Origin: Thermoanaerobaculia bacterium
GTDB lineage: Bacteria; Acidobacteriota; Thermoanaerobaculia; Multivoradales; JBJKRB01
Assembly (NCBI GenBank): GCA_046704885.1
Contig: JBJKRB010000207.1
Coordinates: 11,819-75,818 of the forward strand
Direction of reading: 5' to 3'
DNA length: 64,000 nt
In this document: positions 22,157 through 27,360 of the stretch, one piece after another
How positions within the stretch are numbered: position 1 is the first letter of the stretch
How the letters are laid out: each line of letters starts with the position of its first letter
Translations under genes and position numbers: made by a program
Notes under the pieces: generated by a model
The model's database searches: none
What the model saw: only the letters and a program-made list of their open reading frames with translations
Told to the model about the DNA's origin: nothing

Positions 22157-23224
22157 TCACGAGCCCGCAAGTGAGCTCAGGGTTCTTGATCGCGGGGTTC
22201 GCTCCTCAGAGCCTCCCTCGACAGCCGCCGGAATCGGGCGCCCGTGCGGGCACTCGGAGGGGTAGTCGAGAAAAGCGTCGACCTGGTCTACGGCATCCGG
22301 CGCGAGCGGAATCACGCTGGAGGGATCCCTCTCTCGCCCCCTCTCCAGGGTGCGCGCGATCAGCACCTCGGCAAGACGAAAACGGCGCACCGCATTCAAT
22401 GCCTCGAGCCGCCCCCTGGAGGTAAAGGTTAGCCGGCTGGCGGAGAAGTCTAGTAAGCCCTCAGCCAGGAGCTCGGCGACCCCCGGCCGTTCGACCGACA
22501 CCGAACGCTTCTCCTCTTCGAGCCGACGCCAAAGGTCCGCCAAGAGCGCCGAACGCTCGTCGCTCGCCAACTCATTGGACCTCACCCTGCGCCCGTGCTC
22601 GAGCCGCACCTCGCGATCGGCGCGGGCCGCGATCGCGGGATCGTGCGTGACCAGAACGAGGGTGTGCCCACGGTCGTGCAGATCGGCCATGAGAGCCATG
22701 ACCAGAGCCTCGTTCACCGCGTCGAGATTGCCGGTCGGCTCGTCCGCCAAGAGGATTGGTGGATGGTTGATCAGGGCGCGAGCGATACATACCCGTTGCT
22801 GCTCGCCTCCCGAGAGCTCGCGGGGCAGGTGGTTGAGCCGCTCGCCGAGACCGACCCGGGTGAGCGCCTCCTCCGCCTCATCGCGGTCGGTCATGCTGTG
22901 AACGTACTGCGCCAGCATGATGTTCTCGAGCGCGGTCAGATAGGGAATCAGGTGAAAGCGCTGGAAGACCAGGCCCACCTGCTCGCGGCGGTACCGCGCG
23001 CGCGCCGCCGGAGCGAGGGATGAGAGGTCTTTGCCCTCGACCACGACGCTCCCATCGCTCGGCGTGTCGAGACCAGCGAGAATGTTCAGCAATGTGGTCT
23101 TGCCCGAGCCGGAGGGCCCGGTCACCGCCACCCACTCGCCGGCTTCGACCGTGAGCGCGAGTCCGTCGAGAGCTCTCAGGTTGCCGAACCGCCGGCCGAG
23201 ATTATCGATTTCAATCTGCGCCAT
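22157..23224 (-). CDS. ABC transporter ATP-binding protein fused in-frame to a C-terminal DtxR/IdeR-like metalloregulator domain
   Basis: Start at MAQIEIDNL (23224). Walker A GPSGSGKTTL, signature LSGGEQQR, Walker B LLADEP, H-loop VTHD; about 130 extra C-terminal residues align by eye with DtxR HTH + metal-binding/dimerisation region (…WRRLEEEKR…, …RLTFTSRGRLEALNAVRRFRLAEVLI…ECPHGRPIP). Confidence 0.7.
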   Translation of the reverse strand: MAQIEIDNLGRRFGNLRALDGLALTVEAGEWVAVTGPSGSGKTTLLNILAGLDTPSDGSVVVEGKDLSSLAPAARARYRREQVGLVFQRFHLIPYLTALENIMLAQYVHSMTDRDEAEEALTRVGLGERLNHLPRELSGGEQQRVCIARALINHPPILLADEPTGNLDAVNEALVMALMADLHDRGHTLVLVTHDPAIAARADREVRLEHGRRVRSNELASDERSALLADLWRRLEEEKRSVSVERPGVAELLAEGLLDFSASRLTFTSRGRLEALNAVRRFRLAEVLIARTLERGRERDPSSVIPLAPDAVDQVDAFLDYPSECPHGRPIPAAVEGGSEERTPRSRTLSSLAGS

Positions 23225-23232
23225 GAGTTTCT

Positions 23233-24348
23233 CTACTCTCCGGCGAGGACCACTGCGGGCTCGAGCCGCCGGACCCTGCGCAGCGCAACCGACATGGCGG
23301 CAACGACCACCAGAACCGCGACCCCGGCCGCCGAGACCAGCGCGACACCCGCCGCCGTCCATGAGAGGGAGACGCTCACCTCCAGCAACCGCCGCGAGAG
23401 CTCGACTCCGAGAGCCAGACCAACGAGCGCCCCGCTGGCGGCGGCGAGCAGTGAAGCGGCGAGCAATTCTAGAGCTAGAACGCGCTCGACCCGCCTGCTC
23501 TGGGCTCCGAGCGCGAACCAGAGTGCAAACTCCGCGCGCCGCTCGCCCACCAGCGCCGAGGTCGCGGTCATGACCGCCAGAACCGAAAGCAAGAGGGTCA
23601 CGAGGCTCACCGCGAGGAGAAGCAGGGTCACCCGCGAGCTGAGCTCAGCGTCCGACCGGCTTACCTTGAGCAGCGGTTCGGCCTCGATCCCGGGAACCCG
23701 TCGTTCAATCGCGGTCGCGACCTTTCCCACGGCGCCGCGCGATGCCGCCACCGTCCCGGTGGTCCGCACTTCGATGCGCTCGAAGCCCGGCGCCAGCCCC
23801 CACCGTTCATGATCGGCCCACGGGACGATGATCGCTCGATCCAAGGAATCGCCCGTCGTTACCGTTCCGCTCATGGTCGATCGCCGGGCGGCCAACGCCC
23901 CGTGGACCTCGCCTCCCATTACCGCACTCCCCAGGACGACCTGGCCGCTCTGCGGCCATCTTCCTTTGAGCGCCCAGCTCGAATGAAGGGCGGGCCACTC
24001 CGGAGTCATCGCCAGGACCGTAAGCGAAGCCGCCCCTGGCGCTACACCATTGGCCGCGGCGGCGGGCGTGACCTTCCCTTCGCTCACCCCAGCGGCTCGC
24101 GCTACCCCTTCGATACCCGCGACGGTTGCGAGAGCGCTCGCTGGGATGATGTCGGGGGCTCCCACCTCCGGGCGAATGATCAGATTCGGCCCGAACGCGG
24201 CCAGGCTCCGAGCGAGTGCCTGGCGCGCGTGGACCGAGAAGTCCGCCATCGTGGTTACCGTGGCCGCGGCCACCGCGACCGCCACGAAGATCAAGGCGAG
24301 CTGGCGAAATCGGCGCGTCAAGCTCGCCCACAAGAGACGACCGGTCAA
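23233..24348 (-). CDS. ABC transporter permease, FtsX/MacB-like
   Basis: 371 aa; N-terminal TM, large periplasmic domain, three C-terminal TM helices (FtsX fold); ATGA overlap with upstream permease. Confidence 0.7.
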   Translation of the reverse strand: MTGRLLWASLTRRFRQLALIFVAVAVAAATVTTMADFSVHARQALARSLAAFGPNLIIRPEVGAPDIIPASALATVAGIEGVARAAGVSEGKVTPAAAANGVAPGAASLTVLAMTPEWPALHSSWALKGRWPQSGQVVLGSAVMGGEVHGALAARRSTMSGTVTTGDSLDRAIIVPWADHERWGLAPGFERIEVRTTGTVAASRGAVGKVATAIERRVPGIEAEPLLKVSRSDAELSSRVTLLLLAVSLVTLLLSVLAVMTATSALVGERRAEFALWFALGAQSRRVERVLALELLAASLLAAASGALVGLALGVELSRRLLEVSVSLSWTAAGVALVSAAGVAVLVVVAAMSVALRRVRRLEPAVVLAGE

Positions 24349-25562
24349 GCGGTTGCCCTCGCCAGTACCTGCGCCGGAAGCGACCTGAGCGCCCGCACCA
24401 CGGGGGGGAGGCTACCGAGAACCGCCACGAGCACGCCCAGGATCAGAGCCGGGGCGATGAGCGCCGGATTGAAGGGAACCGCGAACCCGAAGACCCAGCG
24501 GCCGAGAAGCCGGCCGCCGAGCGCTCCAAGCACTCCTCCGGCGAGACCTCCCACGAGTCCTAGAATCGCGGCTTCGGTAAGGAAGAAGAGCGCGATCTGC
24601 CGGCCCTCCGCTCCGATCGCGACCATCAAGCCGGCCTCGATGCGGCGCTCGAGCACGGTTGCGGTCATCGCAGCGGTGACGCCAATCGCGGTTCCGACGA
24701 GAATGACCGCGGCCATCAGCATGAGCACCGCTCGCAGCTGGCCAAGAATCTCGCCGCTCGCTCCGGAGACGTTACGAACGACTTCGGCCTTTGCACCCTT
24801 CAGGGACTTCGTGATGTTGAACGCCACGGACGAGGGATAGGCCGTGCAGTACCACTTGTCGTACTCCTTGCTCGACATCGTCGCTGGATCGCGGCGCGCC
24901 TCGGGGGTCTCCGGATTGGTGAGGGCGAAGATCTCGGCGCGGACGGCGCGGCCGCGACGGCTTCCCAGCTCGTTGACCACGGCGAGAGGAGTGAACGCCT
25001 CGTTTTCTTCCTTTCCACCGCTCGCCACCAACCCAACCACCTTGAGCCTTGCCTCCTTCATCGCTAGGGTGACGGGGACCAGGTCCCCGATTCCCACTCC
25101 CAGCTCGGCCGCCAGGCGGCGCCCCAGGACGACCTCCGCCGCCCCCGGACTGGGCCATCGGCCAGTCAGCTCGAGCGAGGGACGGACCCGCGCCAAGCCG
25201 CTCCGCCATCCGTCGGCGAAGCGGTGATCGAACCAGGTGCCCACCAGGGGCGCGATCCGCTTCCCTCCATCCCAGCTGACTCGCAGTGGATAGAACGGCG
25301 CCACCGCTTCGATGTTGTTGCGCCAGAAGATGGTGCGGAGCTTGTCGAGCTCGGCGACCGCGAAGGTGGTCGAGCCCGAGTTCGGCAGCACCTCGATGTT
25401 GGCTCCATACGAGCTCATCTGTGCCGCCAAACGGTCGCCGGAGGCCAGCAGCAAGCTGCCGAGGGCAACGACCGCGAAGGTGCCCACCGCAACCGCCGTC
25501 GCGGCCAGAAGCTTGCGCCGTTTCCCGCGGCTCAGCGACTCGATGAGGAGGCGGAAGAACAT
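24345..25562 (-). CDS. ABC transporter permease, FtsX/MacB-like
   Basis: 405 aa; same architecture as its neighbour; start overlaps FTR1 gene end. Confidence 0.7.
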   Translation of the reverse strand: MFFRLLIESLSRGKRRKLLAATAVAVGTFAVVALGSLLLASGDRLAAQMSSYGANIEVLPNSGSTTFAVAELDKLRTIFWRNNIEAVAPFYPLRVSWDGGKRIAPLVGTWFDHRFADGWRSGLARVRPSLELTGRWPSPGAAEVVLGRRLAAELGVGIGDLVPVTLAMKEARLKVVGLVASGGKEENEAFTPLAVVNELGSRRGRAVRAEIFALTNPETPEARRDPATMSSKEYDKWYCTAYPSSVAFNITKSLKGAKAEVVRNVSGASGEILGQLRAVLMLMAAVILVGTAIGVTAAMTATVLERRIEAGLMVAIGAEGRQIALFFLTEAAILGLVGGLAGGVLGALGGRLLGRWVFGFAVPFNPALIAPALILGVLVAVLGSLPPVVRALRSLPAQVLARATA

Positions 25563-26836: not shown

Positions 26837-27326
26837 GAGCGGACCTCTCCGGTCCCCGGTCTGTCACGCGCGTGCCCGGAGACTCGGAAGAAACTTCGGC
26901 ACAGGAGCGGCAGAGTCCGGAGATCTCGAGAGAGTGATGCTCCGAGACGAAACCGTGGGCGCGGCAGATCTCGCTCTGCAAAGCAACGATCCCGGGGCTT
27001 ACGAACTCCACCACTCGACCGCAAGAGACACAGACCAGATGGTCGTGATCCTGCCCGCTGTGCACGTGTTCAAAGAGAAAGTGATTGCGGCCCAGCCGCT
27101 GCTTGGTGACCAGGCCCGCCTCGACCAGGAGATCGAGGTTGCGATAGACGGTGGCGCGAGAGATCTCGACTCCGGCCGCCAAGAGCGCGGCGAGAAGCTC
27201 TTCCGCGTCGATGTGGCCATGCTGCGAGAAGATCTCCTCGAACAACGCCAGTCGTTCGGTCGTGACCCGATGACCATTTTCCTTGAGGTAGCTCAGAAAT
27301 TGGGTTCGTTCTCGATCCAGCGCCAT
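26829..27326 (-). CDS. Fur-family metalloregulator
   Basis: Start at ATG 27326 (MALDRERTQFLSY…) with RBS GGGAAG; winged-HTH plus HHDH metal site and two CxxC pairs (CVSCGRV…, CRSC); stop overlaps FTR1 start by 8 nt, so first gene of the operon. Confidence 0.75.
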   Translation of the reverse strand: MALDRERTQFLSYLKENGHRVTTERLALFEEIFSQHGHIDAEELLAALLAAGVEISRATVYRNLDLLVEAGLVTKQRLGRNHFLFEHVHSGQDHDHLVCVSCGRVVEFVSPGIVALQSEICRAHGFVSEHHSLEISGLCRSCAEVSSESPGTRVTDRGPERSAHA

Positions 27327-27337
27327 CTTCCCATCCT

Positions 27338-27360
27338 TATTGAGACGATGTCTCAATAAA
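27338..27360. promoter_or_regulatory. perfect 23-bp AT-rich palindrome TTATTGAGAC-GAT-GTCTCAATAA, candidate Fur-family operator
   Basis: 10-bp perfect inverted-repeat arms with a 3-bp spacer, ending 12 bp upstream of the Fur-family gene start codon; AT-rich in a GC-rich genome. Confidence 0.45.

Follow-up and report, generated by a model that had tools for sequence, protein, structure and literature searches.

A stripped-down, fused relative of the Fet iron-uptake system in a Thermoanaerobaculia bacterium

A compact operon related to Fet

We analysed a 64-kb stretch of the genome of a Thermoanaerobaculia bacterium, referred to as a whole as the window, in which five genes on the minus strand (positions 22157-27326) make up an operon that places an FTR1 permease beside an FtsX/MacB-type ATP-binding cassette (ABC) module. 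The locus is a stripped-down and fused relative of Fet, the FetMP-FetABCDEF system of Campylobacter jejuni (Cj1658-Cj1665) and of E. coli (chromosomal and IncF-plasmid copies): it belongs to a known kind of system, and we found neither of its two gene fusions described in open-access papers. Judged from its sequence, the operon probably encodes an iron-repressible, P19-independent, Fet-class iron uptake system based on the FTR1 permease. A first-pass annotation made from the DNA sequence alone had pointed to a likeness with the accessory genes of P19-Ftr1 systems. As a reference for Fet we used plasmid pB0018, which carries a complete annotated FetM-FetP-FetA-FetB-FetC-FetD-FetE-FetF cluster of the E. 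coli IncF plasmid type, and BLASTP comparison with it turns that likeness into orthology to the FetM core, the FetA C-terminus, FetB, FetC and FetD. The genes and domains of the operon, in the order of transcription, are as follows.

26829..27326, minus strand: fur, Fur-family metalloregulator, 165 amino acids (aa)
25562..26836, minus strand: fused permease FTR1::FtrD, 424 aa
25661..25768, minus strand: Cys5 motif of the fused permease, C357-x2-C360-x13-C374-x2-C377-x14-C392, all five cysteines invariant in 20 homologues
24345..25562, minus strand: FtsX1, FetB-like FtsX/MacB-type permease, 405 aa, with a MacB periplasmic core domain
23233..24348, minus strand: FtsX2, FetC-like FtsX-type permease, 371 aa, TTG start
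22157..23224, minus strand: ATPase, 355 aa, ATG start (MAQIEI...)
22559..23224, minus strand: FetD-like nucleotide-binding domain (NBD), ATPase aa 1-222
22157..22558, minus strand: degenerate DtxR/MntR-like domain, ATPase aa 223-355

All five co-oriented reading frames proposed in the first-pass annotation are present, and every domain named in it is backed by a Pfam profile. The overlap of stops and starts claimed for the whole operon applies to three of its four junctions: the fur stop and the start of the fused permease overlap by 8 nucleotides (nt; ATGCTTGA), the fused-permease stop and the FtsX1 start by 1 nt (TGATG), and the FtsX1 stop and the TTG start of FtsX2 by 4 nt (TTGA), but the FtsX2 stop and the ATPase start are separated by 8 nt. 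No intrinsic terminator-like site was found on the coding strand within the operon. The most likely start of fur is the ATG at 27326 (the longest open reading frame begins at 27398), and the ATPase starts at the ATG at 23224, a 401-aa frame from 23362 being an artefact of taking the first possible start.

The fused permease joins a FetM core to the FetA C-terminus

The second gene had been described as an FTR1 permease fused to a DUF2318-like module with four cysteines. Pfam supports the permease (FTR1, E 4e-33 in the 424-aa protein), as does NCBIfam (EfeU, E 6e-43), where the nearest families are the EfeU/Ftr1 iron transporters. The fusion is real as well (FtrD-like, PF10080, formerly DUF2318, E 1e-27), but the domain contains five invariant cysteines, not four. 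The protein consists of a core of seven transmembrane (TM) helices belonging to FTR1 (aa 1 to about 240), a basic linker with an eighth TM helix (aa ~243-293) and a beta-rich FtrD-like/DUF2318 domain (aa ~300-424). Both REGxE motifs (REGIE and REGVE) are present, and R10/E11/G12/E14 and R126/E127/G128/E130 are invariant in the 20 homologues on which motif invariance in this protein was judged. The CxxC-x13-CxxC-x14-C spacing is the same as that published for the DUF2318 domain of Cj1660/FetA (PMC6083913) and is also shared with E. coli FetA.

By BLASTP, aa 259-422 of the fused permease align with aa 236-402 of FetA, that is, with its last TM helix and DUF2318 domain (39% identity, E 3e-28), and aa 1-210 align with aa 362-591 of FetM, its FTR1 core (26% identity, E 2e-8). 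The fused protein therefore corresponds to a FetM permease core followed by the last TM helix and DUF2318 domain of FetA. FTR1 permeases usually have their N-terminus outside. Given this orientation and a linker of strongly basic character ahead of the last TM helix, we infer from the sequence that the Cys5 domain lies on the periplasmic side. In an AlphaFold2 (AF2) model, nine long helices lead into a beta domain whose predicted local distance difference test score (pLDDT) is 80-90; over the whole model pLDDT is 65, and the TM part is of low confidence. A fold search of this model against the PDB gave no meaningful match (best E 0.87). A Deferrimicrobium locus (L034:14823-16518) encodes a stand-alone 169-aa FtrD-like protein, followed by an FtsX permease, near its fused module; unfused and fused forms can therefore coexist in one genome.

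The FtsX permeases and the ATPase core match FetB, FetC and FetD

The two FtsX/MacB-type permeases of the first-pass annotation are confirmed by Pfam, FtsX1 through FtsX (E 2e-14) and MacB_PCD (E 4e-12) and FtsX2 through FtsX (E 6e-11). In BLASTP comparisons with the reference cluster, FtsX1 is 33% identical to FetB over its full length (E 2e-63), FtsX2 is 27% identical to FetC over 389 aa (E 5e-25), and the NBD is 58% identical to FetD (E 1e-88). The NBD matches ABC_tran (E 1e-37) and has intact Walker A, signature, Walker B and H-loop motifs; its best NCBIfam matches are MacB, LolD, YbbA and FtsE, all under their equivalog cut-offs. At a distance of 4 kb from the operon there is another, conventional MacB-type system (window 31393-35732, minus strand), which is syntenic in related Thermoanaerobaculia loci; it comprises an HlyD-family adaptor (34458-35732) and two FtsX/MacB_PCD permeases (32594-33748 and 31393-32592). 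Since FtsX1 matches the permeases of this second system at E 1e-4 only, its relationship to Fet is specific.

Like type VII ABC systems (MacB, LolCDE, FtsEX), the module has four-TM FtsX permeases in which TM1 and TM2 flank a large periplasmic domain; its two permeases pair as a heterodimer, in the manner of LolCE, and its NBD is closest to MacB, LolD and FtsE. Unlike those systems, it has an iron permease as its partner and an NBD that bears a C-terminal sensor-like domain, and the operon contains no gene for a membrane-fusion or outer-membrane component. One might suppose that this FetBCD-like module is a true exporter of a reductant, thiol or chelator that services the Cys5 domain or iron redox chemistry. 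The conserved periplasmic CxxC pairs could need reduction, and the operon lacks thioredoxin genes whose products could otherwise reduce them. We nevertheless regard such export as rather unlikely, given that permeases with the FtsX fold and a MacB periplasmic core form a class without a transmembrane substrate channel and that the NBD falls closest to those of the same class.

The arrangement recurs in many genomes, with no P19 found in the loci examined

Scanning a single genome for each GTDB species, we found at least 569 species representatives whose genomes encode a relative of the fused permease. We examined the best 80 of these relatives, with 8-kb flanks, in a six-frame phmmer analysis, in which 66 loci extend as far as the ATPase. 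The best 80 belong to Thermoanaerobaculia, Terriglobia (Acidobacteriaceae, Bryobacterales, Acidoferrales), Candidatus Udaeobacter, TA06, Planctomycetota, Deferrimicrobium and Cybelea. Of the 66 informative loci, 58 yielded all four core genes, arranged as fused permease, FtsX, FtsX, ATPase, a recurrence that places the arrangement far beyond chance, and a DtxR-like domain is present on 58 of the 66 ATPases. Loci with no detected ATPase are truncated contigs, except for L050, in which a frameshift put the ATPase outside the filter. The first-pass annotation had allowed that the long reading frames might be assembly artefacts; because the genes are identical in an independent Logan assembly and both fused architectures occur in more than 100 homologous database clusters (59-83% identity; the named ones are Thermoanaerobaculia or Acidobacteriota), they are not. 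The arrangement is thus widespread and not peculiar to the window.

The absence of a P19 or cupredoxin gene, already remarked on from the sequence, extends from the window to the 80 related loci. Searches by tblastn and phmmer with E. coli FetP revealed no P19/FetP (PF10634) in the 64-kb window or in the 80 loci, and no P19-like family recurs in their flanks. The window contains no homologue of FetE, FetF or FMN_bind. When the window and the 80 loci were searched for FetE, FetF, the FetM N-terminal domain, the FetA TM region and YHS, only a redoxin in L012 and a YHS-like tail in L029 were found; an FMN_bind gene occurs among the related loci in L010 only.

What the operon shares with Fet is an FTR1 permease with REXXE motifs, a DUF2318 Cys5 domain, predicted to be periplasmic, with identical cysteine spacing, FetB, FetC and FetD orthologues directly downstream and in the same order, and presumed Fur-family control. 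Unlike Fet, it lacks FetP/P19, the FetE/F thioredoxins, the FMN-binding protein, the ~350-aa N-terminal periplasmic domain of FetM, and the seven N-terminal TM helices and YHS of FetA, the C-terminal TM/DUF2318 part of which is fused to the permease; moreover, the window's FetD carries a DtxR-like domain and the regulator gene lies inside the operon. Two of the features that define Fet clusters, P19 and a periplasmic redox protein, are therefore absent, and two fusions and an in-operon regulator are added. With FtrABCD (Brucella, Bordetella) and EfeUOB, the operon has in common an FTR1/EfeU-family permease as the conduit and, by assumption, a redox-linked periplasmic partner. Those systems rely on P19 (FtrA) and on a cupredoxin (FtrB or EfeO) or DyP peroxidase, and reportedly work without ATP (PMC11966278), whereas the operon has no P19, cupredoxin or DyP peroxidase gene and is obligatorily linked to an ABC ATPase. 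The first-pass annotation took the arrangement to be undescribed, and in open-access papers we found no published description of either an FTR1-DUF2318 or an ABC-DtxR fusion; a review of Acidobacteria mentions FTR1 genes only generically. The FtrD-like domain itself is present in 812 E. coli plasmid records (tblastn of plasmids).

The ATPase carries a DtxR-like domain that is degenerate in the window

The proposed fusion of the ATPase to a DtxR-type domain is real (Fe_dep_repr_C, PF02742, E 2.7e-8), but as a metalloregulator the window copy is degenerate, and its match covers profile positions 45-69 only. The domain follows the NBD with almost no linker and consists of helix 1, a shortened winged helix, a long dimerisation helix and a CPHGRPIP motif. 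Compared with PDB sequences by phmmer, it matches DtxR-family regulators (best E 1e-7). The AF2 model has a mean pLDDT of 81, with residues 1-80 confident and the CPHG region at 59-72. The top 37 Foldseek matches all belong to the DtxR family, although they are weak (E at least 8e-3, TM-score 0.3-0.44) and corroborative only. As a single-sequence query against 1.84 billion representatives, the domain returned 197 matches, mostly ordinary DtxR regulators, a result uninformative on the number of fusions.

Outside Thermoanaerobaculia, the corresponding domains match the full Fe_dep_repr_C profile (E 1e-25 to 5e-29). A profile built from these domains matches IdeR/DtxR structure sequences at E 4e-25 over residues 11-135, which span helix 1, the winged helix and the dimerisation domain. 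Homology of the wider fused family to DtxR, IdeR, MntR and MtsR extends from helix 1 through the winged helix to the dimerisation/metal-binding domain, and both metal sites have kept their ligand positions; the family differs from these regulators in being fused to an ABC NBD instead of forming a free transcription factor, in having no FeoA/SH3 domain, and in a helix-turn-helix (HTH) that is not conserved. We took a census of ligands in 51 loci outside Thermoanaerobaculia and 119 Thermoanaerobaculia-like homologues at the positions of the two metal sites of DtxR, SloR and MtsR, in which site 1 is H76, E80, C123 and H125 in MtsR (PMC9253540). The family's conserved ligands in DtxR itself are M10/C102/E105/H106 and H79/E83/H98. 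In DtxR numbering, the counts are as follows.

H79: 48/51 outside Thermoanaerobaculia; 0/119 Thermoanaerobaculia-like; F in the window
E83: 51/51 outside Thermoanaerobaculia; 119/119 Thermoanaerobaculia-like; kept in the window (E286)
C102: 46/51 outside Thermoanaerobaculia; 115/119 Thermoanaerobaculia-like; lost in the window
E105: 51/51 outside Thermoanaerobaculia; 53/119 Thermoanaerobaculia-like; lost in the window
H106: 49/51 outside Thermoanaerobaculia; 0/119 Thermoanaerobaculia-like; lost in the window
CPHG Cys and His: 51/51 outside Thermoanaerobaculia; 119/119 Thermoanaerobaculia-like; kept in the window (C325, H327)
Terminal Cys pair: 50-51/51 outside Thermoanaerobaculia; second Cys in 99/119 Thermoanaerobaculia-like; lost in the window

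The proteins from outside Thermoanaerobaculia also carry acidic residues at the helix-1 positions used by MntR and SloR, and by the conservation of its ligand residues their domain is an intact DtxR/MntR-type sensor. The window retains only three of about nine ligand positions, E286, C325 and H327. Together with its three closest relatives, it has decayed beyond the other Thermoanaerobaculia: the helix-1 acids are replaced by A, A and S, H79 by F, the ACxFEH motif (C102-E105-H106) is deleted and the additional Cys/His set is gone. The winged helix/HTH of the window copy is about 19 residues shorter. Because most ligands and part of the winged helix are lost, this copy is probably vestigial as a sensor, with Fur probably in charge of regulation. 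It is DtxR-homologous, has a confident AF2 fold over residues 1-80 and is 72-76% identical among close relatives, and for these reasons it is maintained, probably as a dimerising structural module.

An alternative is that the window domain is still a working metal sensor that gates the ATPase through E286, C325 and H327. These residues correspond to three of the four site 1 ligands of MtsR/SloR, the primary Mn site (PMC9253540), the E83 equivalent and the CPHG Cys and His are invariant throughout the Thermoanaerobaculia-like homologues as well as the window, and the domain has been kept in frame, with the identity among close relatives noted above. Set against this are the replacement of the fourth ligand, H79, by F, the disappearance of the whole second site (the helix-1 acids, C102, E105 and H106), the loss from the window's subclade of the extra Cys/His set of its relatives (RIC, HP and the CC tail), and the low AF2 confidence around CPHG. 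On balance, we think it unlikely that this copy still senses metal.

It is also conceivable that the domain is a membrane-tethered DNA-binding repressor, the ATPase doubling as a transcription factor. The fused region aligns with the entire DNA-binding and dimerisation part of DtxR/IdeR, and most lineages with an intact domain have no adjacent regulator gene. The HTH argues in the other direction. The Pfam Fe_dep_repress HTH (PF01325) is matched neither in the window nor in eight relatives, and thus in none of the fusions tested; in a 12-sequence alignment the HTH stretch has a single invariant residue (L52), and its length varies by tens of residues, down to the shortened window copy. For these reasons a DNA-binding role is unlikely from the sequence, and we give a tethered repressor hardly any credence.

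Two further observations concern such domains in other proteins. Acidobacteriaceae ATPases (L037:11649-12866, L081:11676-12965 and others) contain a 30-40 aa His/Cys-rich insertion in the wing of the vestigial winged helix, for example PHPPEPHHHKPFVNPCHD, which may be an extra metal-binding loop. Fe_dep_repr_C also occurs in two metagenome proteins, P0385 and P0266, one of which joins it to an ABC-3 (TroC/MntB-type) permease and the other to a FeoB 'Gate' domain; they lend slight support to the idea that built-in DtxR-like sensors of transporters may be a broader theme, or both may be run-on gene calls.

A Fur-family regulator and a conserved palindrome head the operon

The first gene matches Pfam FUR (PF01475) at E 2.7e-30 over profile positions 1-120 of 121, and its product carries two CxxC pairs and His-rich regulatory motifs. 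Its best NCBIfam match is Fur PRK09462 (87 bits against an equivalog cut-off of 146), and the PerR and Zur models match as well. Three features precede it.

27369..27398, minus strand: sigma-70-type promoter upstream of fur, TTGACA-18 nt-CAGAAT, 10/12 matches
27374..27388, either strand: inverted repeat GGACC-N5-GGTCC in the promoter spacer, kept in all Thermoanaerobaculia upstream regions compared
27337..27359, either strand: perfect 10-3-10 palindrome TTATTGAGAC-N3-GTCTCAATAA, 23 bp, putative Fur-family operator

The region reads TTGACA-AAGG-GGACC-GGATT-GGTCC-AGAAT, then 9 nt, the palindrome TTATTGAGAC-ATC-GTCTCAATAA, 10 nt and the ATG. No other promoter-like site was found in 21.9-27.7 kb, the promoter occurs only once in the window, and in the Thermoanaerobaculia loci L002-L010 and L046 the sequence ahead of fur preserves it at nearly every base. 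The palindrome, with the core TTGAGA-N5-TCTCAA, sits between the -10 element and the fur ribosome-binding site, and its 23 bp occur once in the window against 0.00 copies expected by chance. Allowing at most one mismatch, each of nine related Thermoanaerobaculia loci has a single N5 core, which invariably lies upstream of fur, while L002 has an N4-spaced variant there; the exact core is absent from 1.05 Mb of other loci. Promoter, repeat and operator core persist although the Thermoanaerobaculia proteins are only ~60% identical. The conserved palindrome amounts to a phylogenetic footprint of an operator, to which the adjacent Fur-family protein would be expected to bind, and the GGACC-N5-GGTCC repeat may be a second operator, for another regulator, or a lineage-specific promoter element.

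An adjacent Fur gene is limited to Thermoanaerobaculia and the loci L011 and L016. We considered a simple rule by which Fur replaces the fused sensor and rejected it, as the sensor is intact in L011 and L016, two loci that also have a Fur gene next to the operon; the pattern of Fur presence and sensor decay is one evolutionary event, not a rule.

The character of the regulator also bears on which metal is transported. The system could import Mn2+, Zn2+ or Cu under a Mur-, Zur- or PerR-type Fur paralogue: the Fur homologue stays under every equivalog cut-off and matches the PerR and Zur models too, the intact fused sensors pair an Fe-type Cys102 with MntR-type acidic helix-1 ligands, and the operator differs from the canonical Fur box. 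Iron is nonetheless favoured by the invariance of both REGxE iron-permease motifs, by EfeU/Ftr1 iron transporters as the best family matches, and by the fact that every characterised orthologous system (FetMP-FetABCDEF) is an iron-limitation system. Transport of another metal is, in our estimate, improbable.

Neighbouring genes

Clustering of the flanking reading frames revealed no family beyond the four core genes that recurs widely, and housekeeping genes, for SprT-like, TPR, racemase and TonB_C proteins, are the commonest neighbours. In the window, an ApbE (FAD:protein FMN transferase) gene at 21113-22120 on the plus strand converges on the ATPase stop with a gap of 36 nt, and apbE adjoins the operon likewise in L003, L004 and L007. 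The L010 operon and its apbE are separated by two genes (L010:14798-15810), which encode a 154-aa membrane protein and a secreted FMN_bind protein with the motif SVTGASLT; neither has a homologue in the window. An NqrC-like FMN_bind gene lies upstream of the E. coli plasmid Fet cluster, and it is plausible that Fet systems are linked to flavinylation (PMC8238504). For the window, a partnership of apbE with the operon is not supported: it is the last gene of a conserved opposite-strand string, dapF-GT2-tyrS-apbE, and has an FMN_bind neighbour in L010 only, and the search for an ApbE substrate in the window came up empty. We rejected FtsX1 as a flavinylated ApbE substrate, its SGAS motif being absent from every related FtsX1, close Thermoanaerobaculia relatives included. 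In the frameshift-ridden locus L002 (ENA contig_75032), the ATPase call runs into an ApbE fragment (P0149, 542 aa), a join that is probably an assembly or gene-call artefact and not a real fusion.

A gene for a 130-aa GBBH-like_N/DUF971 protein comes after the ATPase in 11 loci (L015, L017, L030, L038, L045, L048, L056, L062, L066, L070 and L080), at a distance of about 30-500 nt, and overlaps the ATPase stop in L048. The idea that it replaces an absent DtxR domain was dropped: it follows the ATPase in 5 of the 8 loci without the domain, but also in 6 of the 58 with it. Its adjacency looks lineage-specific.

A model for the operon and its implications

We propose the following working model. 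With ample iron, metal-loaded Fur on the palindrome would silence both its own gene and the transporter. Under iron scarcity, the FTR1 core would move iron across the inner membrane, while the tethered Cys5 domain would handle iron or an electron at the periplasmic mouth. The FetBCD-like type VII ABC module would act as a mechanotransducer that carries no iron itself, cytoplasmic ATP driving periplasmic conformational work that feeds or resets the permease. In C. jejuni, growth when iron is limiting requires fetA, fetB, fetC and fetD, every one of them (PMC10783030). The DtxR-like domain would, in most lineages, dimerise beneath the pair of NBDs, bind cytosolic Fe2+/Mn2+ and throttle the ATPase (trans-inhibition); helix 1, a source of ligands in DtxR/MntR, follows the NBD with almost no linker, so a direct mechanical link between NBD and sensor is possible. 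In the window's lineage, decay would have reduced the sensor to a structural module for dimerisation, and control would rest mainly with Fur. The regulatory part of this model, in which an intact DtxR/MntR-type sensor is hard-wired to a MacB-type ATPase so that cytosolic Fe2+/Mn2+ stops FTR1 iron entry post-translationally, and in which the window's sensor decayed after Fur took over, is a tentative proposal that we hold less probable than its opposite.

The C-terminal domains of MetN (C2), ModC and MalK offer a comparison for this part: the fused domain probably resembles them in action, as a dimer placed directly under the NBDs that could bind the transported species or its cytosolic form and inhibit ATP hydrolysis. 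The likeness is an analogy, and the DtxR-like domain is not known to be related to them in sequence or fold.

Several points weigh against our interpretation of the operon. Trans-inhibition by the DtxR-like domain is argued from that analogy and not from homology. On the usual view an FTR1 permease works with a ferroxidase as its partner, and the operon yielded no such gene. The presumed periplasmic Cys5 domain has no recognisable structural relative in the PDB, and the ligand of its cysteines is a guess. The Fur homologue, falling under every NCBIfam equivalog cut-off, could respond to Mn, Zn or peroxide, and the operator is unlike the classical Fur box. Finally, the authors of the C. jejuni study favour a role of FetBCD in supplying reducing power over mechanotransmission (PMC10783030).

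The role of FetA and FetBCD beside an FTR1 permease matters for Campylobacter, uropathogenic E. coli, Yersinia and many Gram-positives (PMC6083913, PMC10783030), and natural fusions are Rosetta stones that hint at how Fet accessory proteins work. To judge by the fusions described here, the DUF2318 domain evidently functions while physically touching the permease, a minimal system appears able to dispense with P19 and the thioredoxins, and the ATP-driven step seems important enough to have its own metal sensor in most lineages. The window's own copy displays the decayed form of this sensor, the most interesting feature of the system. Acidobacteriota are a dominant phylum of soils, and as the system is common among them, it may be one of the major ways in which iron is acquired there; its compact four-gene unit is suited to reconstitution. 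If true, gating of the ATPase by such a sensor would mean that ABC systems have a further, new class of regulatory domain, and it would give a first functional handle on FetBCD.

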